From positions 62,001 through 126,000 of the forward strand of contig NIVC01002379.1 of NCBI GenBank assembly GCA_002269645.1: a stretch of 64,000 bases of DNA, written 5' to 3'. This DNA is from Macrostomum lignano. Its lineage: Eukaryota. Shown piece after piece: positions 30,480 through 48,718 of this stretch; within the stretch, counting starts at the first letter, position 1; each line of letters starts with the position of its first letter. The translations under genes were made by a program, and so were the position numbers. The notes beneath the pieces are model-generated. The model saw nothing but the letters and a program-made list of their open reading frames with translations, ran no database searches and was not told the origin of the DNA.

Positions 30480-30489
30480 TAATATAAAA

Positions 30490-31449
30490 ATGGACACAGT
30501 TAATGACGAAAAACGGCTATATTTTATAGGAGAAATTGTAGATACTTTAAATCTAGACGATAATAAACATAGTCACGCAATGTTAAAAAGATTGGATCGC
30601 TTAGGCAAAAAATTTGACTACGACATCAATACATTTAAACTTGCTGCGAAATATGCACAAGAAGGAAGACCAATATCCTTTAAGAATCGCGGTAGAAACT
30701 ATAGGCTAACAGACTCCGATGTGAAATTTTTATTGGAGACTCACACTAAAAAGGACGGCGGGCTGTTACCTATTCTACCAATTCTTTTAGGACTTGGGGC
30801 AGCTGGAGCAGCTGGTTTAGCAGGAAAAAGAATTCATGATAACATAAAACAGTTAGGAGAATTAAAAGCAAAAGAAGGGGGTATATTACCCCTCGCAACT
30901 TTGCTCCCAATAATTTTTGCAGGAATTGGAGCAGCTGGAGGAGTCGCTGGAGGAGCGGCTGGAATTGCAAAAGCAGTAAATGACAAAAAAGCTGCGGATG
31001 AAAAAGCCAAAAGAGAGGCCGAATTTCAAAGACAGCAAATAACACAGGACGCACAATTCAAACAAAAACTTATAGATACAATTAATAGTAGCTCAACAAC
31101 AGCAGAACAAAAAAGAAATGCAGAAGCTAAATTAGCAGCTGGAAAAGGTTTAATTTTAAAAGGAACGACCCAAGGAAGCGGAGTTGTCGCAGATAAACTA
31201 TATGAGTTTGGGCAAACTTTAGAAAAAACGGGCGAGAAAGCTAAAGGATTTTTTGACAATATTGGAGCCAATTTTAGACCTGCGGTTCAGAAGATTTTTA
31301 ATAAGTTAGGAAAAGATTTTAACATAATCGAAAAACATGACGGAAGTGGTCTATATCTCGAAATGAGGCCAAAAGCAGGTTCAGGAATCTTCTTAAATGC
31401 AAACGTTATGGGCAGCGGATTACTGTTACCGAAAGCAAATCTCGAATAG
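30490..31449 (+). CDS. Polinton putative core protein with two adenovirus pX-like hydrophobic segments, 319 aa
   Basis: DGG|LLPILPILLGLGAAGAAG and EGG|ILPLATLLPIIFAGIGAAGGVAGGAAGIA, plus several GSG motifs. Confidence 0.75.
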   Translation: MDTVNDEKRLYFIGEIVDTLNLDDNKHSHAMLKRLDRLGKKFDYDINTFKLAAKYAQEGRPISFKNRGRNYRLTDSDVKFLLETHTKKDGGLLPILPILLGLGAAGAAGLAGKRIHDNIKQLGELKAKEGGILPLATLLPIIFAGIGAAGGVAGGAAGIAKAVNDKKAADEKAKREAEFQRQQITQDAQFKQKLIDTINSSSTTAEQKRNAEAKLAAGKGLILKGTTQGSGVVADKLYEFGQTLEKTGEKAKGFFDNIGANFRPAVQKIFNKLGKDFNIIEKHDGSGLYLEMRPKAGSGIFLNANVMGSGLLLPKANLE

Positions 31450-31535
31450 GGCTCCTGTGGGGAGGGTCAGGACGACTAAAACCTAAAATTAAAAAAACCA
31501 TTAATTCAAACATTGTATAAATTACATTCTATAAA

Positions 31536-34500
31536 ATGGAATCAATTTTAGCTCAAATCGACAACCCAGAACTTAGAGCGCAATTAATAGCTCAAATCGA
31601 AGCACAACGAATTGCCGATAGGGCTGAAATAGAAGCTAGAGTTAGAGCAGAAAATGAAATACGTTTAGAAAGACAATTAAATGATATTGATAATCCTCAA
31701 CAACAAAGACAAAATGTAGCTGAAGTAATAAATATAGATATTGATATAAATACTGATTATAAAGAATATTTTAAAAAAATGAAAGATAAATTAAAGATCA
31801 TATTAGATAATTATACTACGAAACCTAATAACAAACGACAGCCAATTAAGTATAAAATAGAAATTGAAACAGAATTTAAAAAACCAAGTATGATTAATGC
31901 AAATTCAGAAATTGAAGCAATAAATACCTTTTCACAAGAATCATATAAGACACTCCTATCAATGAGAAATTATGACAACCAATTTAATCAAATAGAAGCT
32001 GAGTTTGATGAATGGATAGATAAAATGACAGAAAACGGATCAGGATTCATTTTTGTATCTTGTAACTCAGTAATAGTAAAGATAGTTCCAATTGAAATTC
32101 TTAAAGGACGATCACACATGGATCCTGGATTTAAATCACCAATGATAATAAATCCTGATAATAAAGATGATAAGTGTTTATTATGGTGTTTATTAATTCA
32201 TAAGTATCACAAACAAGTAAAATCCCACACTAATAAAATATATAATTATAGACAATATGAGGATGAAATAATAATGAAAAACATATCATACCCAGTAGCT
32301 ATAGATGATATATATAAGATTGAAAAAATGAATGGGTTAAATATTAATGTGTTTACAATTGAAGAACCAGAAGATCTAGAAGAAATTAAAACTGATAAAG
32401 AATGGTATAAGAAAAGATGTTATTTAGTAAAGCCAGCAACAGATATAACAGCACCTGATCAAATCGACCTTTTGTACATACAGAATGAAAACAATACTCA
32501 TTATATATACATAAAGGACATTAATTCCTTTTTAAGAGAAAATAGAAATAGGATGTTATTATGTAGAAACTGTTTCACATTTAAAAAAACTGAAACAGCT
32601 CTTAAAAACCACCAAAGGTTTTGTTTGGATCACAAATTTACTAACGTTGTTATGCCCGATGAAAAAGAACAAATCCTAAAGTTCCAACAACATTATATGG
32701 CAATTAAAAAACCAATAGTAATATATGCTGATTTTGAAGCAACAAATGTTCCCTTAAAAGAACCGCCGACAGTATCTGATGGTGAATGTACAAAAAAATT
32801 AGCACAACAGTTCCCAAATAGTTATTGTATATATGTACACTCCGTAGCTGATAATATATTTAAATCAAGGATGTTTACTTACCATGGTAAGGATGCCGCA
32901 AAACACATGGCAGAAGAATTAGTAAATGTTTTTGAATTTATTCAAAATCAATATGATAAGTTATCAAAAAATATTAATATGACAGATAAGGATAAAGAAG
33001 ATTATAAAAATGCAACAAATTGTTTTATGTGTAAAAGGGCTATAAGTGGGAGATATAAGATACGAGAGCATTGCCATCTAACAGGAATTTATCGTGGGGC
33101 AGCATGTAAATCATGTAACGCAAAAGAAGGAAAAGGATGTAAGGAAATACCAGTATTTTTTCATAATGGTTCCGGATATGATTTTCATTTCTTAGTTAGA
33201 GAATTGCTTCATTTAGGTAGAGATGAATATGAAGTAAATATATTACCTAAAACATCAGAAAATTACATATCAATAACATATGGTAAAAAATACTCCCATC
33301 TAGTTTTTCTAGACTCCTTGAGGTTCTTATCAACCTCTTTAGCTAATGTAGTTTCATCATTAGTTCCAAAACCATGGGATTTAGAAATAGTAAAGAAAAA
33401 CTTTCCAATCTTATTGAATCGGTTCAAAAAGGAAAAACTATCCGAGGAAGAACTAATGCTATTAACTCGCAAGGGCATCTATCCATATGAATATGTAACA
33501 TCTGAAAAGGTATTTAATGATACTCAACTACCCCCAATTGATAAGTTTTACTCAATATTATCACAATCAAATATAACCGAATCGGATTATGAACACGCTC
33601 AAAAAGTATGGAAATATTTTAATTGTAAAACATTTAAAGATTATCATAACCTATACCTTAAAGCAGATGTTCTCCTATTAGCTGATGCGTTTGAAAACTT
33701 TAGGAATCATACATATGAGAATTTTAAAATTGATCCAGCATATTGTTTCAGTGCACCAGGATTAACATGGGCATGTGGTTTGAAATATACAGATGTTGAG
33801 ATTGATTTACTAACTGATCATGATATGTTGTTAATGATTGAGAGAGGAATTCGAGGAGGATTCTCAGGGGTACTAGGAGATAGATATACTAAAGTAAATA
33901 ATAAATATCTACCAAATTATAATAAAAAAGAAAAATCATCATATGTATTATATCTAGATGCAAACAATTTATATGGTGGGTGTATGAAACAAAAATTACC
34001 AATAGCTGATTTCCAATGGGAAGACGATCCAGATTATTACAAAAACATTCCCGAAGGAAGGGGATGTATCGTAGAAGTGGATTTGCAATATACTCGGGAA
34101 GCAAAAGCAAAAACATATAAATATCCCCTAGCTCCAGAGCATTGTTCAGTTAATGAAGACGATTTATCACAAACACAAAAAGATTACCTCAAAGCGGATA
34201 ATACAAAACATCTAGCAACAAAAAAGTTAATATTAAATTTACATGATAAGAAAAACTATGTAGTGCATTATAAGCTTCTACATTTTTATGAAAAGCAGGG
34301 ACTAAAAGTTACAAAAGTACATCGAACAATATCGTTTATTGAGGAAGAGTGGTTAGCTAAATATATCGACTTTAATTCAAATCAGAGACAGTTGTCAAAA
34401 ACAAATTTTGAGAAAGATTATTGGAAATTAATGAATAATGCTTTTTATGGAAAAACGGTTGAAAATATTAGAGATAGAACCCAATTCCATTTAGAAAAGG

Positions 34501-35498
34501 ATATTGATAAAGCAAAGAAATATTTCTCAAAACCTAATTTTAAAGACTTTATAAAATTTGATGATAAGTTTATGGGAATTCATATGAGAAATAAAACAAC
34601 AAAATTTCTTAAACCAATCTTTATTGGAATGGTAGTTTTAGATTTTGCAAAGCTGGTAATGTATGAATATTATTATGATGTTATAAATAAAACTTGGCCA
34701 GATAACTATCCAATATATGCAGACACCGATAGTTTGGTATTTAAGGTTGAAACTCCGGATGTCTATAAAGACATGGAAACAATTCAGGATACATTGGATA
34801 CATCCGACTATCCTGATAACCATCCCTTAAAATCAAATAAAAATAAGAAAGTTGTACTTAAAATGAAAGATGAATTAAATAGCAAAATCATAACCGAGTT
34901 TATAGCAATAAGATCAAAATGCTATGCATTTAAGGTTTTAGGACAGGAGGGAGAGGTAAAAAAAATAAAAGGGGTATCAAGAGCAGCAGTAAAAAAGATA
35001 ACATTTGATGATTATAAAAACGTACTTTTAGATTATCTTAATACAATTGAAAATTACCATGCTCCACAATATCGATTAAATTCAGATAAGCATCAAATGT
35101 ATGTCATCGAGACAGATAAAAAAACATTAAATCCTTATGATGATAAAAGGTATTTAGATAATATAATTAAAACATATCCATATGGTTTAAAAGAAGAAAT
35201 TAAAAACATGCAAAATGATAAAAAACAAAAAGAGGATATAATAAATAAATATAAAGAATACATTGAGTCAATAAATAATTATTATTATGATTGTGATTGT
35301 GAATCCGATTGCGAATGCGAATATAATAAATTTTTAGAATATGAAAAAGATATTGATAAATATTATGAAACATTTCCAAAAGAACTTAAAAAAATAAATA
35401 AGGACAAAGCATTGGATAACTGGAAGAGACTAACAGAAGGATTACTTAAGCTACATACTGATCGGGTCTGTAAAAAACTAAAGCATGTAATTGTTTAA
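31536..35498 (+). CDS. polB: Protein-primed family B DNA polymerase (pPolB), 1320 aa
   Basis: Exonuclease motifs YADFEA and FHNGSGYDFHF; polymerase motifs YLDANNLYG, KLMNNAFYGK and YADTDS; uninterrupted ORF. Confidence 0.97.
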   Translation: MESILAQIDNPELRAQLIAQIEAQRIADRAEIEARVRAENEIRLERQLNDIDNPQQQRQNVAEVINIDIDINTDYKEYFKKMKDKLKIILDNYTTKPNNKRQPIKYKIEIETEFKKPSMINANSEIEAINTFSQESYKTLLSMRNYDNQFNQIEAEFDEWIDKMTENGSGFIFVSCNSVIVKIVPIEILKGRSHMDPGFKSPMIINPDNKDDKCLLWCLLIHKYHKQVKSHTNKIYNYRQYEDEIIMKNISYPVAIDDIYKIEKMNGLNINVFTIEEPEDLEEIKTDKEWYKKRCYLVKPATDITAPDQIDLLYIQNENNTHYIYIKDINSFLRENRNRMLLCRNCFTFKKTETALKNHQRFCLDHKFTNVVMPDEKEQILKFQQHYMAIKKPIVIYADFEATNVPLKEPPTVSDGECTKKLAQQFPNSYCIYVHSVADNIFKSRMFTYHGKDAAKHMAEELVNVFEFIQNQYDKLSKNINMTDKDKEDYKNATNCFMCKRAISGRYKIREHCHLTGIYRGAACKSCNAKEGKGCKEIPVFFHNGSGYDFHFLVRELLHLGRDEYEVNILPKTSENYISITYGKKYSHLVFLDSLRFLSTSLANVVSSLVPKPWDLEIVKKNFPILLNRFKKEKLSEEELMLLTRKGIYPYEYVTSEKVFNDTQLPPIDKFYSILSQSNITESDYEHAQKVWKYFNCKTFKDYHNLYLKADVLLLADAFENFRNHTYENFKIDPAYCFSAPGLTWACGLKYTDVEIDLLTDHDMLLMIERGIRGGFSGVLGDRYTKVNNKYLPNYNKKEKSSYVLYLDANNLYGGCMKQKLPIADFQWEDDPDYYKNIPEGRGCIVEVDLQYTREAKAKTYKYPLAPEHCSVNEDDLSQTQKDYLKADNTKHLATKKLILNLHDKKNYVVHYKLLHFYEKQGLKVTKVHRTISFIEEEWLAKYIDFNSNQRQLSKTNFEKDYWKLMNNAFYGKTVENIRDRTQFHLEKDIDKAKKYFSKPNFKDFIKFDDKFMGIHMRNKTTKFLKPIFIGMVVLDFAKLVMYEYYYDVINKTWPDNYPIYADTDSLVFKVETPDVYKDMETIQDTLDTSDYPDNHPLKSNKNKKVVLKMKDELNSKIITEFIAIRSKCYAFKVLGQEGEVKKIKGVSRAAVKKITFDDYKNVLLDYLNTIENYHAPQYRLNSDKHQMYVIETDKKTLNPYDDKRYLDNIIKTYPYGLKEEIKNMQNDKKQKEDIINKYKEYIESINNYYYDCDCESDCECEYNKFLEYEKDIDKYYETFPKELKKINKDKALDNWKRLTEGLLKLHTDRVCKKLKHVIV

Positions 35499-35805
35499 GC
35501 ATAATATCCATTTCAATTTCATATTTTATTGAGCACCAATTTTCCTCACAGTCAGTGGGGTAACTTAAACATTCTTTTACTTTTTTCCTAAGTATTTTTA
35601 TTCGTCTAACCAATCTATCTATTTCAATTTCAATTACTGTTTCAGCATAAGCAATTGCAGATTTAATAAAACGTTTTCTTTTATCTAAATCATATCGGAT
35701 AGGAAACATATCTTCATCATAATCACTATAAAATAAACTATTTAATTTTTTATTAATATAATTAAGTTCACGCTCTTTAGTGATAAGGATTTTTATTGTC
35801 TCCAT
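35446..35805 (-). CDS. Polinton hypothetical protein, 119 aa
   Basis: TATAAGAAAATG start context; converges on and overlaps the pPolB end; no recognised domain. Confidence 0.55.
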   Translation of the reverse strand: METIKILITKERELNYINKKLNSLFYSDYDEDMFPIRYDLDKRKRFIKSAIAYAETVIEIEIDRLVRRIKILRKKVKECLSYPTDCEENWCSIKYEIEMDIMLKQLHALVFYRPDQYVA

Positions 35806-35965
35806 TTTCTTATAAAAAATTTAAACTTATTCGGGGTCATCCTCCCAAACCGAAGCCAATTTTACAGTCCTATCACTCTTTTTATTTTTTGCTTGTTTTA
35901 GTTTAAATTGCAACCCACCCTCCATACTGTATTTCCATTTTTAATCTAAAAAAATAACAAAAAAA

Positions 35966-37983
35966 ATGAAAGACATTTACGAATGTAAAAAATGTAATGT
36001 GCGCATGCATAGAGGGCAAACAGCAAACGGAGATATACGGGCCGACTTGGGGCCTCTCGCCTAGAACGGTCCGTTGGATTTATACCGGCATCATCCGGCC
36101 CAGTATCACATACGCGAGTCTCATCTGGACTAGCGTGCTGGAGCAGAAGGCCGCCCGTCAGCGGCTGTACCAGCTTCAGGGCAGCATTTGCCGTGCCATC
36201 ACAGGTGCGTACCCGTCCACCCCTTACGAGGGGCTGAACACTATCCTTAACCTACCTCCGCTTCACCTATTTATTAGGGCGGAGGCTATGAAGTCTGCCT
36301 CCCGGCTTATCAGAGATAAAACGTTAAATAACGCGCCCTCTGGCTTTATGCCAATGAAAACATTAATCCCGCATATGGACTTTGTCCGCCGCGACCTTAA
36401 CAACATCCACATGGACCTGGGCAATGTGGATAGTCGACCTCCCGCCCTCAACATCAGGAGGGGCTTCAAGACCGCCATCCCTGGCCGAGACAACATTCCG
36501 CTGGATGTCGGTGTGAACCGGCGCAGCCAGGGCATTCACTGCTTCACCGACGGCTCGCTGTTCAACGGCCGCGCTGGAGCGGGTATTGCCATTTTCCACG
36601 AGGGTAAGATGCTTCTCCAGGAAAGTCTGCACCTCGGTGAGAACACCTCAGTTTTCCAAGCTGAAATTTGCGCCATTGAGCAGTGTGCCCAGCAACTATT
36701 TCAGGCGAACATTAATAATTTTGACATTAATTTCTACACTGATAGCCAAGCTGCTATTAAGGCCTTAACCACTGAGAATATCTCCGCTGCTACAGTATCT
36801 CAATGCCACCGCAGTGTGCAATCTCTCTCAGTCCTTAACAGGATTAGAATTATCTGGACACCTGGTCACAGCAACATCCTGGGCAACGAGCTCGCGGACT
36901 CTCTCGCCAAGGAGGGCAGCAACCCAGACGGCAACCACCGTCTGATGAGGCTACCCACCCCCAGGTCGCAAGTCACCCGCCATATCAACAGGTGGCTCCA
37001 TCAGCAGCACCAGCTCCACTGGAACAGCTGCACCGAGTACAGGCAGAGCCGCTCTGCCATGCCTAACCTGAACAGGAAAGTCTCTGATTATCTGATTTCG
37101 CTTAACAGAACCGACCTCAGGGAGATGTGCATGGTCCTAACCGGCCACGGATTCTTCCAGAGACATATATCGTTGCAAACCGGTTGCCCTCCCACCTGTC
37201 CCTTCTGTGGCATAGGAGAGGAGACCGCGGAGCATCACGTCACCTTCTGCCCTTACTTCAACAAGGCGCGGCACAAATACCTCGGCCACCCCCAGCGGAT
37301 GGACGAGCTGACCACCGCGGACAATATCCGAGACCTCCGCGCCTTCGTCCGGGACTCCGGCCGGATGAGGGTCGCCGATGCCTCCACTGCGGACCTGCCG
37401 ACTACTGGCGGGGACTGGGCGCACCCCCAAGGCTAATCCTTGTGCTCTTTTACCTTGGGGTTGCGATAGGGGCCTCGCGGCCTATTCGCGGCGCCTGCGC
37501 CCCCCGTCAGTAGTAAGTAGTAAGTAAGTAAACGGAGATATATATCATATGTGTTATTCATGTTCTAAAATATATCAATTTGAAAAAATAAAAAAGATTG
37601 AAAATTCATATTACTATTTTAAAAACACAATTTTAAGAAATCTTACAAGAGACATTTCCGATCCAATTTTAATTCCGGGAAATAATGTTTATTTATATAA
37701 TAACTTTTTCCATTTAAATAAAGGAAAGGGATTAAGTTCGAAAGACTCCGAAAGGATTTTAATTTTAGTTGGATATTATTTTAATTTTCTTATGCGAGAG
37801 AATACAAAGTTTATAAGGATTGGTAACATACCTAACGAAATGTTATTGAAAAAGTCATTAGAATTTTTATGTATTGATAAAAAATTTAAACCTAGGATTA
37901 CAAGAGAGTTACCACTTTGGGAAGAATATATAACGTATGCATTAAATAAACTAAACAACCTGAAGTTCTACAGTACTTCCTGA
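35966..37983 (+). pseudogene. Polinton zinc-ribbon gene (170 aa when restored) interrupted by a LINE
   Basis: Removing 36038-37542 restores [33 protein letters not shown]... (CxxC-x17-CxxC) at an exact codon boundary. Confidence 0.85.
36038..37529 (+). mobile_element. 5'-truncated non-LTR retrotransposon with RNase H (LOA/Lian/R1-like), 1492 bp
   Basis: 13-bp TSD AAACGGAGATATA (36025-36037 and 37530-37542); WGLSP...[18 protein letters not shown]-terminus; RNase H motifs FTDGS / AE / TDS / GNELAD; CCHC knuckle; (TAAG)-like tail; GC-rich relative to the Polinton. Confidence 0.92.
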
Positions 37984-38604
37984 CCGCGGACTTTGTAACC
38001 CGGTAGCAATAGTTTCCGGTTTGTATTCAATAGTTTCTATCGGAGGAGCTTTGGGTTTGTCCAAACGCAATTCCTTCAATTCCATATCGGTAAAAGTTTC
38101 AACATCCAAAATTCTATTTCTATCTTTTAAATATTTTTCATATAACTCAACCGCGGTTGATAATTCATGAATAGTTATCTCTCCGTCATCCAATATTTTT
38201 TGCACATATAAATATAATTGATTTTTATATTGTTTTGCAACATCTCTTAAAGATTTATATTTTTCCTTTCTTTTTTTAAGATATAATTTAATTGCTAAAA
38301 GTATTGATAAGTTCCTGATCAATTCAAAACCTGATATTGAGCCAATTGAAATACCTAAAAATAATTGAGATAAATTAAGAGTTGGAAATGATTGTAAAAC
38401 ACCTAAAACAATTACACATAACATCGATAAGCTTCCAAATCCAATATTGAAAAAATCCATATTTCTGATATGATTTGAAATTCTTCTCACTTTTTTAGTA
38501 TATAAATCATAATCATAATTTATTCGATCAACATTACTCAACATGTGACCCTTGCGTTGGTTAAAATGATCACGTTCCCTTTTATCTGCTTCAGACACCG
38601 ACAT
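37951..38604 (-). CDS. Polinton two-transmembrane-helix protein, 217 aa
   Basis: Two hydrophobic segments followed by a basic helix and ILDDGEITIHE; located in the minus-strand structural gene cluster. Confidence 0.75.
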   Translation of the reverse strand: MSVSEADKRERDHFNQRKGHMLSNVDRINYDYDLYTKKVRRISNHIRNMDFFNIGFGSLSMLCVIVLGVLQSFPTLNLSQLFLGISIGSISGFELIRNLSILLAIKLYLKKRKEKYKSLRDVAKQYKNQLYLYVQKILDDGEITIHELSTAVELYEKYLKDRNRILDVETFTDMELKELRLDKPKAPPIETIEYKPETIATGLQSPRSGSTVELQVV

Positions 38605-38917
38605 TTTCGTCTATTTTTAATAGCACCAAAATGAATTCCCCGCGCTCTTTGGGGATCTGCCCCGAGCTCAATAGGTATTGTATCAGACTTATTCTTTCTT
38701 TTTTCTCCCATTTAAATCCTATTTTCCAAAACTCTTGAAGTATAATATGATTTTTTAATAACTTAATTAATTCTTGAAGCTTCTTATTATCCTGAACATT
38801 TACAGTACTAAATAAAAATTTGGTATGAGATTTGAATGTTTTTATATTTGATTCTTGTTTAGGAATAGGAATAATAACATTATTTTGCCGCATCGATGGA
38901 GTTCTACTAAAAGCCAT
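38591..38917 (-). CDS. Polinton hypothetical protein, 108 aa
   Basis: TATATAAAATG start; N-terminus MAFSRTPS resembles that of the adjacent fibre-like gene. Confidence 0.65.
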   Translation of the reverse strand: MAFSRTPSMRQNNVIIPIPKQESNIKTFKSHTKFLFSTVNVQDNKKLQELIKLLKNHIILQEFWKIGFKWEKKERISLIQYLLSSGQIPKERGEFILVLLKIDENVGV

Positions 38918-38960
38918 TTTATATAGAAATATTTAAGTTATCGCCCCGTAGGGTCGCACC

Positions 38961-41006
38961 TTAGGTGATTTGAGTTTGTGGCTGTTCCAAATATGCGCTC
39001 GCAGCAAAATCATATCCTGCTGATGTGCTACCACAAACGGCTGCACCACGAATAAAATGTGCAGCATCCGATCCTCCGGTTCGAGCACCAAAACCCATAA
39101 GTGTTCCCGTTTTATCTAAATCTCCCCAAGTTCCGCTATCATATGTAAAAAAGTTTTGCCCAATTAACGTATACACTTTAGTTGAAACATTGAATGTGCT
39201 TATTTGATACCAAACTCTTTGATTAAGAATATTAATTTCAAAAAAGTGCCAATCACCATTATCAATATTAGCATAGGTTATAGTTTGATCTGCGTCATTA
39301 AGAACATCATTACGAACCGTAGCTCCGTCTGATTTTACATTACTCCATAGAACTCCAACTCTGTCATGCCATTCACTAGCAAACACTATCAAACCCGCGT
39401 TGGTTGTTAATCCAGATCCAAATTCCGTTGTTGGACGTTGGTGACAGTATGCATAAAACCAAACAGCGTCAGCACCATCTCCTGTAGTATTAGCAACTCG
39501 GAAATAGAAGGAGGCGGATATATTACGAAAATGGGTGAAATTAAATTGTAACGCTCCAGACCGACCCGATGCTTCATCAGTAATTCTAGCACCATTTTGA
39601 TAATCTATATAAGAAGCATCTCCAACAAAACTTCCTGTTGGAAAAATATCGCCGGCGGTGGTTGGGTTTTGATACCCAGTCCAATTGCAAATTACGGGCT
39701 CGTACAAAGCGGCATCAATTGCAGGTATTCCATCCAATTTTATTTTATCATTAAAAGACATTCGGCCATCCGCCGTTGGTGTTACTCGCGTGTCAACATA
39801 ACCTTTAGTAACAACAGAACTGTTATCGTTTATATTAGAGACATTGGTGATCGTATTGGAACCCATATCAATTGATTGATTAACTACTCCCAGATTTAAA
39901 TCAATAATTGTAAAAGTCTGCCTATAAATCTGAAAGGTTGACAGGCCGGGGTTTGTAGCACCCGAAGTTGATGTAAGACAGAACAATCTGAAATATGAAT
40001 ATGTTTTATCAAAATTTTGTGTGACATTAATTGTTTGAGTTGAGTTATTTATTTCTACAGAACTATCCGCAGGTATTAAAACATCCCAGCTCGTATTGTC
40101 ATTACTTCCTTCAAATCGCCATGATGCTGGATGCTCGGTTGATGGCGACGGTCTTCCACGTAAATCAATTTTATAACACATTATTGCAGATGGACATTGA
40201 ACCTGAATCCAATAATCGGTTTGTGTATTATTGGTCGCCCAATCTGTTGCATTATCTCCATCAAAAGCTTTCCAGCTTGCAAAATCGGTTGTATTAAATG
40301 CTGTGCTGGCTGTAATTGCAAAACCATTTCCACTCCAATCTGACATAGTAGGTATGTGGCCGGTTTCAACCGTTTGGAATCGATCCTGTTTTGGTGTTCC
40401 ACCTCCAACTATATTATCAACTTCGGTTTTGGTATAAGAATCAGCAACATTCCGTTTCAAATTTAATGAATTATCAACTTCGGTTTTGGTATAGGAATCG
40501 GCTATGTTCCGTTTCAAATTTAATGAATTATCGACTTCGGTTTTGGTATAAGAATCGGTTATGTTCCGTTTCAAATTTAATGAATTATCGACTTCGGTTT
40601 TGGTATAAGAATCAGATATATCTCTTTTCAAATTTAATGAATTATCAACCTCTGTTTTGGTATAAGAATCAGATATATCTCTTTTTAAATTTAGGGAATT
40701 ATCGACTTCTGTTTTGGTATAAGAATCAGATATATCTCTTTTTAAATTTAATGAATTATCAACTTCGGTTTTGGTATAGGAATCGGCTACGTTCCGTTTC
40801 AGATTTAGTGAATCATCGATTTGAGTTTTAGTATAGGAATCTGCAACGTTTCTTTTTAAATTTAATTTATTATCAATTTCAGTTTTTTTATAACCTTCAT
40901 CCTCATTAATATATCGATTATCTCCGAATGTAACACTGATGCCACCAGATGTGCCACCACCAGTACTTGTTGTTCCGTTCCATGAGGGTGTTCCAGAAAA
41001 TAACAT
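38961..41006 (-). CDS. Fibre/receptor-binding-like protein, 681 aa: 8 x 19-aa repeats, a discoidin (F5/8C)-like domain and a ConA/legume-lectin-like domain
   Basis: YTKTEVDNSLNLKRxxxDS repeats; WKAFDG...WIQVQ...WRFEGSND...YSYFRL; VVTKGYVD fibre-type motif; C-terminal GADAVWF...WHFFEI...GFGARTGG. Domain calls are by eye. Confidence 0.75.
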   Translation of the reverse strand: MLFSGTPSWNGTTSTGGGTSGGISVTFGDNRYINEDEGYKKTEIDNKLNLKRNVADSYTKTQIDDSLNLKRNVADSYTKTEVDNSLNLKRDISDSYTKTEVDNSLNLKRDISDSYTKTEVDNSLNLKRDISDSYTKTEVDNSLNLKRNITDSYTKTEVDNSLNLKRNIADSYTKTEVDNSLNLKRNVADSYTKTEVDNIVGGGTPKQDRFQTVETGHIPTMSDWSGNGFAITASTAFNTTDFASWKAFDGDNATDWATNNTQTDYWIQVQCPSAIMCYKIDLRGRPSPSTEHPASWRFEGSNDNTSWDVLIPADSSVEINNSTQTINVTQNFDKTYSYFRLFCLTSTSGATNPGLSTFQIYRQTFTIIDLNLGVVNQSIDMGSNTITNVSNINDNSSVVTKGYVDTRVTPTADGRMSFNDKIKLDGIPAIDAALYEPVICNWTGYQNPTTAGDIFPTGSFVGDASYIDYQNGARITDEASGRSGALQFNFTHFRNISASFYFRVANTTGDGADAVWFYAYCHQRPTTEFGSGLTTNAGLIVFASEWHDRVGVLWSNVKSDGATVRNDVLNDADQTITYANIDNGDWHFFEINILNQRVWYQISTFNVSTKVYTLIGQNFFTYDSGTWGDLDKTGTLMGFGARTGGSDAAHFIRGAAVCGSTSAGYDFAASAYLEQPQTQIT

Positions 41007-41016
41007 TTTTTACTGT

Positions 41017-41490
41017 CTATTTTATAGAATCTAAAATAGCCCTAAAGTCTTCGGGTCTTTCCTTCGAGTTATTAATTTTATATAAAAAATATAACGCCGC
41101 TTGCCCGCAATAACTTTTATCAAATGTTTGAAATTGTTCGTGATGATCTCCACATAAACGATTTTTAGTATGATTAAATTTATCTTTTATTTCCTGTAAC
41201 GGAGGAAGCGCGTATGAATCAAAAAAATAAACAAGTTTAGGTTTTGAATAAACTGCTGACCAATGAACACCGTTTTCTTTTGTTGTTTCAATATTAACAA
41301 TGTAAGATCCATATCTTGGTAAGTCTTTTATCTCATCCCGCATAACACATCTAAATGGTTTTATTTTTAACTGCCGCGCCCAATTTGTTAATTCGATATT
41401 GCTTGTTGTGTCTGTTCCATATCTTTGTTTGAACCCGCCCCACGTTAGTGATGGCGAGGACTCTGTCCGTCTGTCCCAACTCATAGTCAT
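41017..41490 (-). CDS. Adenain-like (C5/Ulp1-fold) cysteine protease, 157 aa
   Basis: GVHW, FFDSY, Q and YCG catalytic arrangement typical of Polinton proteases. Confidence 0.9.
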   Translation of the reverse strand: MTMSWDRRTESSPSLTWGGFKQRYGTDTTSNIELTNWARQLKIKPFRCVMRDEIKDLPRYGSYIVNIETTKENGVHWSAVYSKPKLVYFFDSYALPPLQEIKDKFNHTKNRLCGDHHEQFQTFDKSYCGQAALYFLYKINNSKERPEDFRAILDSIK

Positions 41491-41491
41491 T

Positions 41492-41665
41492 TTATGTTCC
41501 TGAAAAACTTTTGGTTTTAGTTAGTTTAGTAGGTGTGGGTTTTAACAGCTCCTTTCTTATTTTATCTGCTTGTAACTGTCTTAATTTTGTTAGTTCTAGT
41601 TCATAATTATCTTCAGCTTTTTTAACTTTTTCCGTTTGTTTTTTTAACGCATTGTTGTTACCCAT
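41492..41665 (-). CDS. Small ORF below the track cutoff, 57 aa (MGNNNALKKQTEKVKK...KSFSGT)
   Basis: Fills the gap between the penton and protease genes; has the TAAAAATG start context; its stop codon abuts the protease start context. Confidence 0.65.
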   Translation of the reverse strand: MGNNNALKKQTEKVKKAEDNYELELTKLRQLQADKIRKELLKPTPTKLTKTKSFSGT

Positions 41666-41675
41666 TTTTACTATA

Positions 41676-42461
41676 TTAAACCTGTTTTATACGTAAAATT
41701 ACTGTTATTGATTGACCACCAAAACTTATTAATCTATCGCTTTCATCTACGATCCTAATATAAATTGATTGAACGCTATATTGATTTAAAGGATAATATA
41801 TTGGGGTTTGGGGTGCAACAATCATTTTCTCTCCAATTGGAACAGCAAGAAACGGGATTGAATAAATAATTCCACGTTGAACCAAAACCCCATTATTATC
41901 TGTTATATAACCGCCGTTTGATATGTCGGTTGTTATATTAATTGTATTGACTCCGCCCTCAATGTTTCCCACGGTATCACCGGTGCTTGATGCGGTAACT
42001 ATTCGGGAATTAAATCCAAGTATGGTTCTGAGTGAGTTTGCAATTGTGAAATCAACCTGATATCCTGATCCTAGTGATAGGGTGAATCTTCCCGACGGTA
42101 AATCAACACCTATAACAATCGCACCAGCTACCCAATCACCATTATCCGTTAATTCTCCTTCTATGTAAGCATTCAAATCGGTATAGCTATACGCCCCTGG
42201 ATTAACGCTAAAAGTTGTCCAATTGGCTCCGGAATCTTTAGAATATCTAAATTGATTATTTGTTGCATTAATTAATTGAGGCATGTTAAAAACCGAAAAT
42301 AGTATCAAACCTATTTGATAACTTAGGCTTTGATCTAGTTGTAACGGATCGCGCAATTGAATCCGTTGCTCGCTGCTTGTCATTATAAACTGTAAGGTTG
42401 TGCTAAATTTTGAATTAGTTCGATCTACCAATTGTTTTATAGTGTCTAAATTTGTTGCCAT
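41676..42461 (-). CDS. Minor capsid (penton) protein, 261 aa from MATNLD
   Basis: Beta-rich sequence with YQIGL, NNQFRY, PGAYS..DLN and IYSIP...P...YYPL...I.IRIVDE patterns; lies between ATPase and protease; TATAAAAATG start. Confidence 0.82.
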   Translation of the reverse strand: MATNLDTIKQLVDRTNSKFSTTLQFIMTSSEQRIQLRDPLQLDQSLSYQIGLILFSVFNMPQLINATNNQFRYSKDSGANWTTFSVNPGAYSYTDLNAYIEGELTDNGDWVAGAIVIGVDLPSGRFTLSLGSGYQVDFTIANSLRTILGFNSRIVTASSTGDTVGNIEGGVNTINITTDISNGGYITDNNGVLVQRGIIYSIPFLAVPIGEKMIVAPQTPIYYPLNQYSVQSIYIRIVDESDRLISFGGQSITVILRIKQV

Positions 42462-42515
42462 TTTTATAGTGGGGAATAATAGCATCGGCGGCAAGAGAAC
42501 CAAAGATTTGAGATT

Positions 42516-43277
42516 TTACTCCTCGTCCTCATTATCTTCTTTTATCAAATTTGTTAAGATTCGATTTCTTCTTTCTAACCTAGGGTTGACATATATGTGT
42601 TTGTATTGACTATCATCCCAAATTTTTTTACACATACTTTTAAATGGTTTTGTATCCAACCCCGGATTAAATCTAGCGTGTATATTTTGTAAATCATAGT
42701 CATCTAAATCAAACATTACACAACAGCTAGCATTCTTTTTTATAATCGATTCTAATTCTCTAAAGGATTGAGTAAGATAAAAAGCTCCAATTCCATCTCC
42801 TCTACCACTAACAAAAATTTCTTTTTGCAATTCTTGATCTCCGTCATTAATACAATCGTCAAAAATAATTAGTGTTTTATCATATTTAGGAATTTTGTCA
42901 TAAGTTAATCTGTTTGATATTGTAATTGTTGGAGAATTGTTGTCTATATTTTCTGGATCTTCTGCCGTTTTTTTACATAAATCCTCAATGTCTGTTAGTT
43001 TAAATCTTGGTTCATCATCGTCCTCATATTGCTCATATGCTCTTAACATTCTAAATAAGATATCTTTTTTTAATTTGTTTTTTAATCCGTGTTTAAGAAA
43101 TTCATAATATTTTATTCTAGGTTTGTTAGTATAAATTATTAAATTATTATAGTCTAACATTCCATCGGTTGTTAACAAGTCATAAACAAAGTGGGTTTTT
43201 CCTTTGCCCGATCCACCAATTACTAAACAAAGAAAAGGATCATTTGGAAATATTTTATAATGTTTTGCTTTTACCAT
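42516..43277 (-). CDS. A32/FtsK-like genome packaging ATPase, 253 aa
   Basis: Walker A GGSGKGKT, Walker B LIIFDD, and R...IGAFYLTQ. Confidence 0.93.
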   Translation of the reverse strand: MVKAKHYKIFPNDPFLCLVIGGSGKGKTHFVYDLLTTDGMLDYNNLIIYTNKPRIKYYEFLKHGLKNKLKKDILFRMLRAYEQYEDDDEPRFKLTDIEDLCKKTAEDPENIDNNSPTITISNRLTYDKIPKYDKTLIIFDDCINDGDQELQKEIFVSGRGDGIGAFYLTQSFRELESIIKKNASCCVMFDLDDYDLQNIHARFNPGLDTKPFKSMCKKIWDDSQYKHIYVNPRLERRNRILTNLIKEDNEDEE

Positions 43278-43297
43278 TTTTTAAGTAAATAATTTAA

Positions 43298-44779
43298 CTA
43301 ATCTTTATCTACGGGCGCATCCCGAACAACGGTTCCGTCGGCTTTAGCAATTGATATATATTCCTCTAGAAACAATACGTGGGCGTCTAGTGCCTGATTA
43401 CCGGTTTTATTAATCTCTAACATATAATTCAAACCAACATTGGCTACATTTTCTTTCTGTGCAGTTAGATCAAAAACAACTACTGGGTGAATGTTTAGAA
43501 ACTCCGTGGGTGTGTACTGAGGAACAGCATACGCTTCATTTTTGGTATAATCTTGATAATATTTTATAAAATCATTAACATTATTATTTGCTATGTTTAG
43601 ATTTAAGGGCTCTTTAACAGGATAATATTGATCATCAACCTGCAGGCGGATATTCTGAACATTAAACTCGTTAATAGCTGAAACCGCGTTGTCGGTTGCA
43701 GTGGCTGCCTGAGCTGCTACATCCTCTGATTGAAGCCAATATAAATCCCCGTTTGCTCTTTTACTCCTTCTATTTGTTATTTTAAACCAAACAAAAATAT
43801 ATCTCACCCGACGTTTTGATATCGTTATCTGCCACTGAAATGAATCCTGATTGTTGTTAATGGTTCGCATAAAGTGGCGCCGATTCAAATAAAATATTTC
43901 TTGATCAACCATTATCTGCTTATTAACATGTGCTAAAAGAGGCGCCGTTAGCTCTAGTTTTGGTACGACTAATTGAATTGATGCTATACGAATTGCGATA
44001 TCGGTTGAAATTGAGGTTCCATAAAGTATCCTAGGCTGATATCCACCAGATATTTGCAACTGTACCCCAAATTTTAATCCTTTCCATACCCGATTTGGTG
44101 AGAAGAACCCAAATAGTGGAAAGATTGAAAAGTCTTGCTCATATGCGCTTGCTGTGGTTAAAACCGCTACTGGGAATTTATTCTGACGATCTATAAAACC
44201 GGTATTAATATCTTTTGTGTTAGTCATGGTGGTTACAACTGGAACTATATTGGTATTAAGATAAGCTATAAGGGCTGCGGTATCTGCGCCGGCTGCATTT
44301 TGTACATTAGGGAAAACTACTGCTTGTCCATTACCCTTATCAGGCATCCACCCAACACTATCACCAACTTGTTTTGATAAATAAGTATAATTTAAATGTT
44401 TCAAAACTCCATTAATCTCTGCTGGGTTTGTTGATGTCTCAACCTCGGCTCCATTAACAGTTAGTTGAGCTTGGGAAAAACATTTATAAAACCAATCATT
44501 TTCTATAATAATTCCAGAACGATCTGGGATATCACCGGCTGCAAGAGCAGTTCCATCGTTTCTGGTATACAACCATCTAACGCGGAAAAACGCGTTTTTC
44601 ATATCTAAAACGCTGTCGCTTGCCCCAACGTCAAAAGTTACCGTTCCCGTAGTAAAATTGTTTGAATTATCACTTGTTGGTAGGGTATAATTTAAATCTC
44701 TTGCCCTGATCTCATTAATATACTGCCGGTGCTTTTTAAAATGAAATTTATCACTCCATATGGTTTTTGTTTCAGCCAT
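43298..44779 (-). CDS. Major capsid protein (double jelly-roll), 493 aa
   Basis: Size, beta-rich composition, position next to the ATPase, and Polinton-MCP-like patterns (FSQAQLTVNGAEVE; C-terminal VVFDLT). Confidence 0.85.
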   Translation of the reverse strand: MAETKTIWSDKFHFKKHRQYINEIRARDLNYTLPTSDNSNNFTTGTVTFDVGASDSVLDMKNAFFRVRWLYTRNDGTALAAGDIPDRSGIIIENDWFYKCFSQAQLTVNGAEVETSTNPAEINGVLKHLNYTYLSKQVGDSVGWMPDKGNGQAVVFPNVQNAAGADTAALIAYLNTNIVPVVTTMTNTKDINTGFIDRQNKFPVAVLTTASAYEQDFSIFPLFGFFSPNRVWKGLKFGVQLQISGGYQPRILYGTSISTDIAIRIASIQLVVPKLELTAPLLAHVNKQIMVDQEIFYLNRRHFMRTINNNQDSFQWQITISKRRVRYIFVWFKITNRRSKRANGDLYWLQSEDVAAQAATATDNAVSAINEFNVQNIRLQVDDQYYPVKEPLNLNIANNNVNDFIKYYQDYTKNEAYAVPQYTPTEFLNIHPVVVFDLTAQKENVANVGLNYMLEINKTGNQALDAHVLFLEEYISIAKADGTVVRDAPVDKD

Positions 44780-44813
44780 TTTTTTAAGTTAAAAAAGTTT
44801 TTTATGTTAAAAA

Positions 44814-45482
44814 ATGAGTCAATTTATGGACGTTGATGGAGAGTTAGCAATTTATAAAGAAAAGCAAAAATATTCTGATTTTGTTAGAAATTTACAAAAA
44901 AGAAAGTTAGGAATACAACTCGCTGGCGAAAGATTTGCTGCCCCTTTTGTTAATCCTATTACGGGCAAACTTAGTGAACTAGAAAAAACAGATAAAGACC
45001 TTCTTGAAAAAATTGCTAAGAATACCGAGCCAAAAGAGGATGAAATTTTAGATGAGCCGCCTACTTATGATGTTGATCAAGTGCTATTGAGACTTGCAGA
45101 GATTAGGCGTGCAGAAAGGGATGGAGTTGAACAATTTACGAATGTCCCACGAAGCATTGCAATAGAGGAGTTAGATAATGATAATTACCGAATTGGTCGA
45201 GTTAATAAAAATCGAAATGATTTATATAGAGAATTGGGCGGAGCATATAGAATTATTACTAACCCTAGGGTTAAGTTTAACCCTGATTTTTATACTAGGG
45301 ATGAATTAGTAAGTGCTAAAATTTTTTATGATGATTTAGGAGTAGGAGCTGTTAAAAATACCAACTTGTATAAAAGGATTGTTGATTCTATAAATAACAA
45401 GCCGGCTGTTGGTGAAGGATTTAAAACTCCGCGAAAACTTGTTTTAGCTGCCGCGAAAGCTGCTGGACATACGGGTGTTTAA
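44814..45482 (+). CDS. Polinton conserved-type hypothetical protein, 222 aa
   Basis: Transcribed divergently from the MCP gene; C-terminal VGEG|F...AAGHT motif; AAAAAATG start. Confidence 0.7.
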   Translation: MSQFMDVDGELAIYKEKQKYSDFVRNLQKRKLGIQLAGERFAAPFVNPITGKLSELEKTDKDLLEKIAKNTEPKEDEILDEPPTYDVDQVLLRLAEIRRAERDGVEQFTNVPRSIAIEELDNDNYRIGRVNKNRNDLYRELGGAYRIITNPRVKFNPDFYTRDELVSAKIFYDDLGVGAVKNTNLYKRIVDSINNKPAVGEGFKTPRKLVLAAAKAAGHTGV

Positions 45483-45503
45483 TTAAATTTATTTTTTATA
45501 AAA

Positions 45504-46012
45504 ATGGATAATACGATAAATGAATGTCTTTGTAAACCTATTTATGATAAGGTAGGTTCTGACAGAATACTAAATAAGATATTTCAAGATGATTTAATAA
45601 TTGCAAACCGTATTAAAACAATTCAAATGAGGCTAGGATATCTTTATGAATTATTAGCTATTGAACATTTTGGTTTTGAAAAAATTAAGAAAATTGATTT
45701 AATTCATACTGAAAGAAAAATTGCGTTAGAGTTAAAATCTTCTGATAACACAGATAATTCATCGAGTCGATTTAGAAATATTCAAAAGTTATTAGAATTT
45801 AAAAATGTTAATCCTGAATTTGAGTTATATTATATTTGCATTAATAATACTACTAAAGCCCCCCCGTACAAAAGGTATTTGATAATGGAGTTACATTGTT
45901 AACTGGGGATTTTGCTTTAAATTTTTTATATGGTGATCAATATTTGGAAATTACTAAACTGATAGAAACGTGTTTTTTAAAGATTAAAAATGAGCAATCA
46001 ATTAGTGTTTGA
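45504..46012 (+). CDS. PD-(D/E)xK restriction-endonuclease-like protein; 169 aa if one C is added to the C7 run at 45859-45865
   Basis: GYLYE...IDL...ALELKSSDNTDNSSS resembles Eco47II-type nucleases. The -1 frame continues 48 codons (VQKVFDNGVTLLTGDFALNFLYGDQY...) to TGA at 46010. Confidence 0.6.
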
Positions 46013-47585
46013 AGGAGGCTTGTTGGATATTCAAAAAGGATTAACAAGCTTACCGCCAATCTTTACTACTGGTAGGTATACAAATGAATTACACATTCCA
46101 GGGTACTCGTTTGCAGGTTATCCCGTGGCCTGAGTGGTAGAAGCAAAGCTACTGCTAGTCACTATTAGTGGCAACATCTCCAAATTGCGTGAAACCCGTC
46201 ATACAACTTCAAGTACCACTTCAGTTGAGAAATCTTCTGAAGGAACACAGGTAACTCCTGTTCCCAATGGTAAAAAGCTTGAAGACATGGTGGCAATGCG
46301 CAGCCAAGCTCCTAAGTATTTTAAATATAAGGAGAAGGTTCAGAGAGCAGACGGAGATGGGCGGTAATCATCGCCGCTTAAGGTGTGCTCCAGCCTCATT
46401 CGAAAGATTGAGGGTAAACTACCTGGGACTAGACTGGATTTAAGATTAAATCCTGACAATACTCCAAAATCTGATTCAATTCCAATAAATGGGATTGATT
46501 GGTTAGCATACTATCACGACTTAGCATATAGAGATGCTGACAAGAACCCTCCCGAAGAAGCGTTAAGATTAAAACATGAAGCCGATCAAAAAATGATTCA
46601 AGGATTAGATAACTTACAAGGCTTATCAGTAGGCCAGAGATTAACTAGGTGGATGGTTAAAAAAATTCTACAATCTAAAGTTAAATTTGGTTTAGGAATT
46701 AATTACAACCAACATGGTAATAATTGTGTCGAATGTTTGTTATTAAGTGGTAGTGGGCTAAGTTATGATAAGGCTAAGGTTCTTCATAAAGAATACCGAA
46801 AACCTAAATTTTATAGAAAAATCATGAACTTCAAAAAGAATGAAATTTGGTATGCTGATTTAATGTCGATGCCAAATGATAAAGGATATAAATATATTTT
46901 AACAATATTAGATGGTTTTACTCGCTACGCGTGGGCTATTCCTTTAAAATCCAAAAAGGGAGAGGTGGTTGCTGCTGCTTTTAGAAGTCTTGGAGAAAAA
47001 AGCGAACGGTTGTGTGTTGACGAAGGAAAAGAATTTTACAATCCTCACATGTATAAATTGTATCATTTTGAAAAAGGACAAGAAAGGAAAAAGGACGCGA
47101 ATGGGGAGTATATTAATAAAATTTATTCTATTTATGGAGAGAGTAAAAACGCATTAATAGAAAGATTTAATAGAACTTTAGGTAAGAAATTATGGTTTCA
47201 GTTTAGTCTTAATGGTAACCAAAAGTGGGTAAAAATATTACCAGACGTCGTAAAAGATTATAACAATTCATATCATTCAGCTATAAAGATGACTCCTCAA
47301 CAAGCTTATAACAATCCTGAAAATGTTAAGGTTACTTTTGGAGATTTTGAAAAAAAGAAAACTAAAGGTTTTAAAGTTGGTGATTCTGTTTATATCTATA
47401 AATGGAAAGATAAGTTTGAAAAGGGAAGAAAAGGATATTGGAAAATAAGTGAGAAATTTACTATCAGTAAAGTTTTAAATACAAATCCCACAACCTATAT
47501 CATTGCTGATAAGGATGGTGAAGAAATATTGGGCTCATTTTATGAAAACCAGCTAATGCCGGTTTCATTTCAATCCGTTACTTAA
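45990..47585 (+). CDS. Parvovirus-type PLA2 domain fused to a retroviral-like (rve, DDE) integrase; exons 45990-46118 and 46422-47585, 430 aa
   Basis: Joined exons give ELHIPGYSFAG|PGTRLDLRL...PINGIDWLAYYHDLAY...HEAD (PLA2), then WYADL...ILDGFTRYAWAIPL...VDEGKEF...IERFNRTL...YNNSYHSAIKMTP (integrase), with no stop between the two domains. Confidence 0.9.
46119..46421 (+). ncRNA. Group I intron (IC1-like) ribozyme, 303 nt, no internal homing endonuclease
   Basis: P1 CAGGU/GCCUG with a U.G pair at the 5' splice site; P3 CAUCUCC (46175)/GGAGAUG (46353); P4 UGCGUG/UGCGCA; P5abc with A-rich bulge; P6; P7 G-A-GAGCA/UGCUCC; P8 GGCGGU/AUCGCC; P9 with GAAA loop; P9.0 AG/CU; P10 with the 3' exon CCUGGGA. 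Confidence 0.92.
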
Positions 47586-47802
47586 GGCAACAAGGTAGTA
47601 AATTTTTTATAACAAATAAAAACAATATTATTACTATTATAGTTACTAATATTATTATTGACATTTGTTCAACAGTTATCAAACTTAAATTATCATTAAG
47701 TTCATTAATTGGCACATTTCCGATATAGGAATAATTTACCTTCATTTTTTTAAATATATTTTTAACAATAATTGTTGTTTCTGTTACAGAATAATAGTTC
47801 AT
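47578..47802 (-). CDS. Small single-TM protein, 74 aa
   Basis: Hydrophobic IIILVTIIVIILFLFVI segment; TTAAAAAATG start. Confidence 0.6.
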   Translation of the reverse strand: MNYYSVTETTIIVKNIFKKMKVNYSYIGNVPINELNDNLSLITVEQMSIIILVTIIVIILFLFVIKNLLPCCLK

Positions 47803-47805
47803 TTT

Positions 47806-48036
47806 TTAACTATTTTTTTCGCAATTTAAACATTGTGCTAAAAGAAGACTTTGCTCCCCCTTATCCCAAATATAATCTAATTCTCCAATTTCAAGCGGAT
47901 ATATCTTTATATCTGGATATATATATACTTCATCGATTATTTTATACTTTATTAATTTTTTTATTGAATCAAGTGCGTTGAATATTGTTTGGGTTGATTC
48001 AGTTATTGAAAAGTAGGGTCTGTTATCTAATTTCAT
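47806..48036 (-). CDS. Small protein, 76 aa, paralogue of 48040-48354
   Basis: Shares the NR..FS, IIDEVY, YPL, GE and LN pattern with its neighbour. Confidence 0.7.
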   Translation of the reverse strand: MKLDNRPYFSITESTQTIFNALDSIKKLIKYKIIDEVYIYPDIKIYPLEIGELDYIWDKGEQSLLLAQCLNCEKNS

Positions 48037-48039
48037 TTT

Positions 48040-48354
48040 TTACATAAAAATTTCAATTTTGCTCTCTGAATCACTAGTTTCATATGAGCTATTTGTTGAG
48101 TTGGAATCGTCTGAACGAACCTCCCAATCGTCTGAATTTAAATAATCTCCAAGTTGAAATATTAACTCACCCTCTTGTTCTAGATCATACATCCCATCCA
48201 AATCTAGCGGATAAAGTTTTAGTTCTGTTTTGTCATCATATTTTAAATAAACTTCATCAATTATTCCATTCAGAATATGTTGTTTTATTATCTCTGAATT
48301 TTTAGCAACAGTCTCAAAAGTATCACTAACTGAAAAGGTGTAAACGCGGTTCAT
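48040..48354 (-). CDS. Small protein, 104 aa, with an acidic Ser-rich tail; paralogue of 47806-48036
   Basis: Shared motif pattern; CTAAAAATG start just inside the right TIR. Confidence 0.7.
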   Translation of the reverse strand: MNRVYTFSVSDTFETVAKNSEIIKQHILNGIIDEVYLKYDDKTELKLYPLDLDGMYDLEQEGELIFQLGDYLNSDDWEVRSDDSNSTNSSYETSDSESKIEIFM

Positions 48355-48371
48355 TTTTAGTAACAGAAAAA

Positions 48372-48718
48372 GACCCTACGCGCCTGCGGCGCGGCCTGGG
48401 GTTATAAAGTAGTAGTAGGTAAAAAGACGCTTCTAGATCAGACCTATTGAAAATGATGATTTGAAGGGCTATTAATGGGGGGACGCGAGGGGATTGTTTG
48501 GTTGTGATAGGGTGTGTTATTGGGAATATGGGTGAATATTGTGTGATTTGTGTGAGTTGGTGGTGTTAATGGGAGGTAGTGGGAGGTAGTGTGTTTAAGG
48601 GGGGTAAAGGGTATTTAGATGTGTTTTTTTAGTACCCCCTCGTGTCCCCCCACTAGCCCTTCAAATCAGCATGTTAAATAGGGGTTCTGGGTCTAGAAGC
48701 GTCTTTTTACCTACTACT
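48372..48718 (-). repeat. Right TIR (347 bp) with an internal terminus copy beginning at 48408
   Basis: Reverse complement of 28219-28565. Confidence 0.95.

Follow-up and report, generated by a model that had tools for sequence, protein, structure and literature searches.

The last nucleotide (omega) of a group I intron in a Polinton of Macrostomum lignano is a standing A/G polymorphism, neither an assembly error nor a peculiarity of one copy. Of 114 copies fetched, each counted as a separate place although single-copy genes recur in the assembly, 84 end in A, 30 in G and none in C or U. On balance, comparison of these copies suggests that omega-A does not mark a dead copy but is a tolerated natural allele, probably spliced at the A. 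The terminal G of group I introns is, to our knowledge, called universally conserved. As far as the literature searched goes, the natural segregation of omega-A and omega-G in a group I intron appears to be new; omega-A itself is already known from the ND5-717 intron.

The window analysed is a stretch of 64,000 nucleotides (contig NIVC01002379.1, positions 62,001 to 126,000 of the forward strand), and coordinates are given as positions within it.

The element and its interrupted gene

The intron lies in an element of 20.5 kb with inverted repeats of 354 nt that are 99% alike and a 6-bp target duplication. An rve integrase (PF00665) and an A32-type packaging ATPase (PF04665) score over the Pfam cut-off within it, and on these features it is classed as a Polinton/Maverick. 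Two ORFs of 1320 and 493 amino acids have no match to a polymerase or capsid family in Pfam; the 1320-aa ORF carries PolB-like motifs, and the labels of protein-primed family B polymerase and capsid protein are putative. The parts of the element that matter here are as follows.

28219..48718, unstranded: Polinton/Maverick-type element, with terminal inverted repeats of about 350 nt and a 6-bp target duplication
45504..45902, + strand: Eco47II-like nuclease ORF, free-standing, upstream of exon 1 (Pfam RE_Eco47II, E 1.4e-4, below cut-off)
45990..46118, + strand: exon 1, 43 codons, the last being the first Gly of the PLA2 G-P-G loop
46119..46421, + strand: group I intron, 303 nt, without an internal ORF, splitting the G-P-G loop of the PLA2-integrase gene
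46422..47585, + strand: exon 2, 387 codons, with the remaining PLA2-like domain and the rve integrase

The integrase in exon 2 is matched by Pfam rve at E 6e-8, and the first in-frame Met of this exon is codon 58. The half domain left in exon 2 matches Phospholip_A2_4 at E 0.002, below the cut-off, which is exceeded in the intron-less homologues P0001 and P0003. PLA2-like genes have been described for adintoviruses in the accessible text of one study (PMC8502044), and no relatives of the PLA2-integrase were found in the viral contigs searched. The frame of the Eco47II-like nuclease terminates early in the window copy; a 228-aa relative inside the intron of a second Polinton family (family B, below) is above the Pfam cut-off, and a free-standing nuclease lies upstream of exon 1 in 29 of the 114 loci of the window's own family. 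Three contigs (C506, C952 and C393) hold both a Wnt match and an intron copy, as expected of an animal genome.

Other features of the element were noted in passing. A GC-rich, RNase H-bearing piece of a retroelement (35970-37500) is inserted in the Polinton and contains all 8 GGNCC words of the element. On the minus strand, the 681-aa ORF at 38961-41006 combines 19-residue repeats with an F5/8 type C domain, and its product may be fibre-like.

Intron boundaries and ribozyme structure

The intron is the sole Rfam match in the window (RF00028, 71.3 bits against a cut-off of 50, E 4e-16). The original prediction placed its 3' boundary after A46421 on the basis of P9.0, P10 and restoration of the G-P-G loop, and all three are present in the sequence. 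Three intron-less alleles from the same genome (L031-L033) read Gly^Pro-Gly in open frames, indicating a precise interruption of the gene, and G-P-G-T is found in all four outside homologues that cover the site (P0001 and P0003-P0005; P0002 begins later). Because these three alleles and four homologues all read G-P-G, the junction after A46421 is fixed. The local alignment to RF00028 halts at G46412, which reflects the fit of the model and is not a mapped splice site. In one intron-less allele, L033, the last base of exon 1 is C and not U, leaving it without the U that the 5' splice site would need to form U.G.

The structural elements on which the argument depends are these.

46114..46132, + strand: P1, with a U46118.G46128 wobble at the exon end; its loop side, 46121-46127, is the P10 guide
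46343..46349, + strand: P7 5' strand, equivalent to 262-268; G46345 corresponds to G264, G46347 to 266 and C46348 to 267
46379..46391, + strand: J8/7 and P7 3' strand; G46385 occupies the place of A306 and C46388 that of G309, and C46390 is C311
46392..46393, + strand: P9.0 5' strand (AG), A46392 and G46393 pairing with U46420 and C46419
46394..46413, + strand: P9 hairpin with a GAAA loop; G46412 pairs with C46395, and 46397:46410 shows C-G/A-U covariation
46419..46420, + strand: P9.0 3' strand (CU), pairing in the sequence with 46392..46393
46421..46421, + strand: omega, the last intron nucleotide, A here, preceding the CCN GGN (Pro-Gly) codons

Position equivalents in P7 and J8/7 were mapped onto the base triples named in the accessible part of PMC10020454. 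P7 pairs G46343-(A46344)-G46345 A G C A46349 with U46386 G C U C46390 C46391. The guanosine-binding pair G264-C311 (G46345-C46390), which had been predicted to be kept, is indeed present with a bulged 263 in 112/112 copies, and the U.G pair at the 5' splice site occurs in every one of the 112 copies that have a 5' end. The predicted P10 is also there, the guide at 46121-46127 forming 6 of 7 pairs with exon 46422-46428, though the window copy is a best case. Among 83 omega-A copies just 2 reach 6 of 7 and most form 4 or 5, and in the commonest omega-A haplotype no more than 4 of 7 pairs are in register.

Pairing of the core helices P3, P4, P6, P7 and P8 is retained across variants, and two-sided changes occur in P2, P3 and P9. 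Subgroup IC1 introns are marked by P2, P2.1, an extended P5 and an IC1-type 3' domain. Of the features of this subgroup, P2 and P2.1 pair here; there is a single short P9, with no P9.1 or P9.2. About a quarter of the copies belong to a 333-nt class, having a 30-nt insertion in the P5 region near 46268, and in other copies the N-terminus of exon 1 has in-frame insertions of short units that resemble this 30-nt insertion.

Omega-A and omega-G across copies

Searching the genome by pattern gave 77 omega-A and 25 omega-G copies, without a single C or U at this position. Both alleles remain diverse when identical sequences are merged, with 28 distinct junction haplotypes for A against 16 for G, and 56 distinct introns against 21. 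Copy counts of both alleles are inflated because the assembly repeats single-copy genes (Wnt matches lie in 2-4 contigs), and the copies are not independent of each other, a single exon-2 haplotype being dominant.

The assembly contains many one-base indels in runs, and these make a sequencing error at 46421 worth considering, as is a mutation private to the window copy. Both are refuted by the 84 of 114 copies ending in A, by their 28 haplotypes and by independent runs, and we give such an explanation practically no credence. A contig of run X1 spans 46370-46469 without a difference from the window, contigs of runs X1, X14 and X9 carry omega-A with 0 differences over 89-168 bases, and a second genomic place is 100% identical to the window copy over 481 nt. 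The original prediction left the choice between a natural omega-A variant and a copy-specific inactivating mutation; with 84 of 114 copies and 28 distinct junction haplotypes ending in A, the first is upheld and the second falls. It had also named G at 46421 in sibling copies as evidence against it, and here the outcome is divided, with G in 30 of 114 and A in 84.

By their terminal A, the window copy and 84 of 114 copies in all fall outside the canonical omega-G group I introns; the omega-A form is filed as a group I variant because published work classes the omega-A intron ND5-717 as group I.

Indirect evidence on a probable tolerance of omega-A

Linkage with omega fades within about 6 nt (r2 0.33 at -1, 0.53 at +3, 0.35 at +6 and at most 0.18 elsewhere). 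A tree of the introns, which omits the 2 of 114 copies without a 5' end and whose branch order is unreliable owing to recombination, needs 11 A/G changes (7 forced by supported branches) compared with a shuffled mean of 18.7, and two A/G pairs of copies are identical across the rest of the intron. Hitch-hiking of omega-A is therefore unlikely, given linkage this short and 11 changes of state. As the omega site recombines nearly freely, a null allele there should be purged like other nulls. Only 12 of 71 core positions are variable, and G-to-A changes at 23 core G positions reach no more than 3 of 112 copies, against 84 of 114 at omega.

Translation of exon-2 codons 1-40 requires splicing, since they lie upstream of the first in-frame Met. 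With either allele these codons are strongly constrained, pN/pS being 0.059 with A and 0.043 with G in a sample of 50/84 omega-A and 16/30 omega-G copies (the others were dropped for broken frames). Linkage being short, this constraint is not assignable to A by itself. The frame of exon 2 is open in 51/84 omega-A and 16/30 omega-G copies (p 0.52).

Omega-A copies could instead be non-splicing passengers, served in trans by omega-G or intron-less elements, with the intron kept and spread at the DNA level by splitting GGNCC, and with an integrase that may start at the Met of exon-2 codon 58. We regard this as unlikely, although several observations suit it. The word GGNCC is absent from the element outside the inserted retroelement (0, against 22-64 for control words), and intron-less alleles have the GGNCC site with no nuclease within their three loci; that the nuclease cuts at GGNCC is a prediction from its Pfam family, the empty site forming this word. 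Unspliced RNA also reaches a stop within 5 codons. On the other hand, supply in trans should tolerate other killing changes equally, so that their low rate counts against passengers: ribozyme-killing changes 30-230 nt away from omega, like changes to Pro-Gly, are found in about 3% of copies at most. Two more observations speak against passengers: 0 of 114 copies have C or U at omega, and nuclease presence shows no significant difference between alleles (24/84 A against 5/30 G copies, p 0.23); omega showed no link with nuclease presence or with gene intactness.

The reading of omega-A as an allele spliced at A also has to be weighed against a different 3' site. Were omega-A copies to splice after G46412, nine extra mRNA bases would add Gly-Lys-Leu to the PLA2 loop with the integrase in frame, and 46421 would therefore be a silent third position of Leu. 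This site is G in 113 of 114 copies and is where the Rfam alignment terminates. Its nine bases encode GKL with only silent variation in 84/84 omega-A copies, while 16 of 30 omega-G copies deviate (GKQ, RKL, GKR, GKM). That pattern agrees equally well with the rival site and with constraint on P9.0, which is intact in 84/84 omega-A and 17/30 omega-G copies (28/28 and 9/16 haplotypes), a contrast that comes from only 2-3 mutation events and that a Gly-Lys-Leu coding constraint would equally yield. However, G46412 is paired inside the covarying P9 and, from the sequence, would have neither P9.0 nor P10; no homologue has an insertion in G-P-G (3/3 in the genome, 4/4 outside); the G of family B falls exactly at the 46421 position, with nine different bases before it; and CTC and CTT, equally silent, are absent from the copies. 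We thus hold splicing after G46412 to be distinctly improbable, more so than passengers. The original prediction had objected that this site would break P9 and insert GKL into the loop. The alternative is indeed weakened, but the purely synonymous variation of the nine bases in omega-A copies speaks for it.

Adenosine deaminases have neighbour preferences, and inosine can bind in a G pocket. A host deaminase might edit omega-A to inosine, filling the G pocket and making splicing subject to a host licence, and omega-A does have a U on its 5' side in 84/84 copies and lies between two helices. Contigs of X1, X9 and X14 show A with no differences, a weak objection as these runs may be DNA; editing seems to us very improbable.

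Among the contigs listed for 8 of 14 presumed-RNA runs there was no joint across the intron, which is no evidence either way as they are possibly DNA and rare forms may have been lost. Runs X1, X3, X5 and X8 were compared with the window and X4, X9, X11 and X14 with an omega-A copy of the commonest haplotype, and a junction contig with 30+30 bases could be missed in this comparison. In the same runs, unspliced contigs span the 3' boundary of omega-A haplotypes as well as that of more divergent ones. A splice branch was considered where contigs stop at the 5' splice site, but rejected because a variant 30 bases away accounts for these ends.

Two further ideas about omega-A were discarded. Compensation by a stronger P10 is contradicted by mean duplex energies of -4.6 kcal/mol for A and -6.2 kcal/mol for G (17 and 15 haplotypes, p 0.058), which run in the opposite direction. 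Avoidance of a DNA word was rejected because 0 of 10 words spanning omega are depleted in the element.

The P7 module and its origin

The GAGCA/UGCUC form of P7 is present in 113 of 114 copies, the remaining copy keeping a G.U pair. A core pattern gave 113 matches in the genome, with GAGCA in all among the 100 matches listed, and in the 112 of 114 copies matched by pattern 266-309 is G-C and 306 is G. The original prediction had described this P7 as a compensatory double change. The variant is real, but it is not private to one copy and is part of a larger block that includes G306.

Polarity is given by family B, another Polinton family, whose homologous intron interrupts the gene at the same point, is about 880 nt long and has an Eco47II-like nuclease ORF inside it. 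The Rfam search of the genome scored 28 of 29,353 first-look candidates, and family B as used here is those 28. All of them combine omega-G and a P9.0 of CU with A at 306 and a P7 whose 5' strand is GACUU; the 3' side of P7 is AAGUCC in 26 and AAGUAC in 2. Since family B carries omega-G (28/28 scored) and an ordinary P7, both omega-A and the GAGCA core are derived states within the window's family. The two families agree at 132/150, 16/17 and 23/24 positions in flanking stretches but at 20/42 from P7 through J8/7, and this local drop suggests that the P7-P8 block entered the window's family as a unit.

Other differences between the families were also seen. In P4 (46190 and 46298), most copies of the window's family have a two-sided change, U.G against the G-C of family B. 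Several bases of the P5 extension (46206-46260) occur in only 2 copies of the window's own family yet match family B, which suggests exchange between families in the window copy. In family B (L141-L168) the nuclease ORF lies within P2.1 and reads on into the ribozyme core.

The same GAGCA/UGCUC P7 turned up in 5 loci from viruses and 15 from metagenomes, several of which are duplicates, and all 20 have G at 306, a position at which the search pattern permitted A or G. Five viral loci were tested with Rfam, L035 and L037 being unconfirmed. Of the 20 introns, which lie in giant-virus capsid genes, 13 have a readable end: 8 clearly end in G, 5 end in G if the 5' exon is taken as one base longer, and none end in A. 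The GAGCA P7 is thus a module of three positions, shared with a broader lineage of viral introns and situated away from the omega layer. It is probably older than omega-A and separate from it, having probably entered the family as a block, and it may be permissive for omega-A.

Five of these capsid introns (L127, L128, L130, L135 and L136) apparently lack a U.G pair in their 5' splice site, and by eye their P9.0 and P10 fit best with an exon ending in G paired to C. The viral contig L036 has, at 19-2258, at least 7 group I intron matches nearly end to end, one of them with a GAGCA P7.

P7 as a switch to adenosine was rejected, as the same P7 occurs in A copies, G copies and omega-G giant-virus introns. 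A causal link from the P7 change to omega-A is not supported, given its presence in 30/30 omega-G copies (one with G.U); being fixed in both allele classes, the variant cannot separate A from G. The mark of an adenosine-specific pocket is missing too, with an unaltered 264-311 pair and a P7 state not confined to omega-A copies.

A possible second step at A

Omega-A slows the second step of splicing in model introns. For the intron described here, the first step would be ordinary, with free guanosine bound in the normal G264-C311 pocket. In the second, A would be unable to form the usual base triple at the omega layer. Our preferred reading, judged from pairing and variation in the copies, is that step 2 nevertheless takes place at A46421 without the omega triple, probably more slowly, with the 3' site set mainly by P9.0 stacked on P7 and by a modest P10; we consider this somewhat the better bet. 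P9.0 and P10 guide the choice of 3' splice site in the accessible accounts of other introns (PMC6155759, PMC2588497). If P9.0 sets the site, it would follow that both its pairs are kept in every omega-A copy while one can be lost in omega-G copies. G306, with G266-C309, would belong to the fourth triple layer as a module of its own, apart from that of omega.

Slow splicing could possibly make omega-A a throttle on integrase expression. In a bolder and rather doubtful version, this lineage would be freed from the terminal-G rule: a swapped-in P7/P8 module (G306.G266-C309) and a strict P9.0 would permit ligation after A efficiently enough to make omega a common A/G polymorphism, and A would have become the majority by tuning PLA2-integrase output of a nuclease-armed Polinton within an animal's cells.

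Comparison with known systems

In the literature searched, which covers few subscription papers, we found neither a segregating omega-A/G intron nor the GAGCA P7 module, and no group I intron in an animal Polinton. The accessible parts of PMC8706829, PMC2532722, PMC4094466, PMC8393795, PMC6247863, PMC11296320 and PMC10748475 contain nothing on omega-A. Nuclear group I introns were described in 2013 as confined to rRNA genes of microorganisms, in the available portion of a review (PMC3679873). RF00028 introns of about 300-380 nt have been described in protein genes of protist Polinton-like viruses (Rhodomonas, Paulinella, Desmodesmus; PMC12220804); in contrast, the present intron has an animal host and a PLA2-integrase gene, and the accessible text of that study is silent on omega and P7. 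Giant-virus capsid introns (IMG/VR and metagenome; L034-L038 and L126-L140) share GAGCA/UGCUC P7 and G306 in 20/20 loci, but they have omega-G where readable and only short core stretches of them align with the window intron.

Engineered adenosine-using group I introns, as ascribed to Been and Perrotta in 1991, reportedly need an altered binding pocket, whereas G264-C311 is unaltered here in 112/112 copies. The G-binding pocket of Tetrahymena consists of four triples, the fourth being A306-C266-G309, in the part of the structural account available (PMC10020454). By sequence, the window intron has in common with it the A263/262-312, G264-C311 and A261/A265-U310 layers and a 2-bp P9.0; it differs in its fourth layer, G-G-C in place of A306-C266-G309, and in having A at omega in most copies (PMC10020454, same portion).

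The nearest precedent is the one named by the original prediction, and it holds: the hexacoral mitochondrial ND5-717 intron ends in A, with ligated exons confirmed by RT-PCR, according to the accessible text of two studies (PMC6545197, PMC8146996). It is the one natural exception to the terminal G that we found in print, and it is giant, mitochondrial and hard to assay. The intron described here, if spliced at A, would be a rare natural test case for how group I ribozymes find their 3' end; were its A alleles passengers, interest would narrow to the intron itself. It occurs naturally in A and G forms that share the rest of the intron sequence, and it comes with an outgroup whose core is ordinary and with covariation data from a population. 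With these natural alleles, the choice of a 3' site without the omega-G triple, the effect of the fourth layer and slow splicing as a selected regulator are all testable, and the answers bear on ribozyme-based RNA circularisation and trans-splicing, in which the terminal G is a design constraint. Both introns have a natural omega-A and a conserved core, as far as the available descriptions of ND5-717 go. In those descriptions ND5-717 is obligatory, sits at site 717 of mitochondrial ND5, has a giant, gene-bearing P8 and has A as the described state. The window intron differs from this type: it is 303 nt long with a short P8, interrupts a PLA2-integrase gene of a nuclear Polinton, has empty alleles, and carries A and G segregating on near-identical cores.
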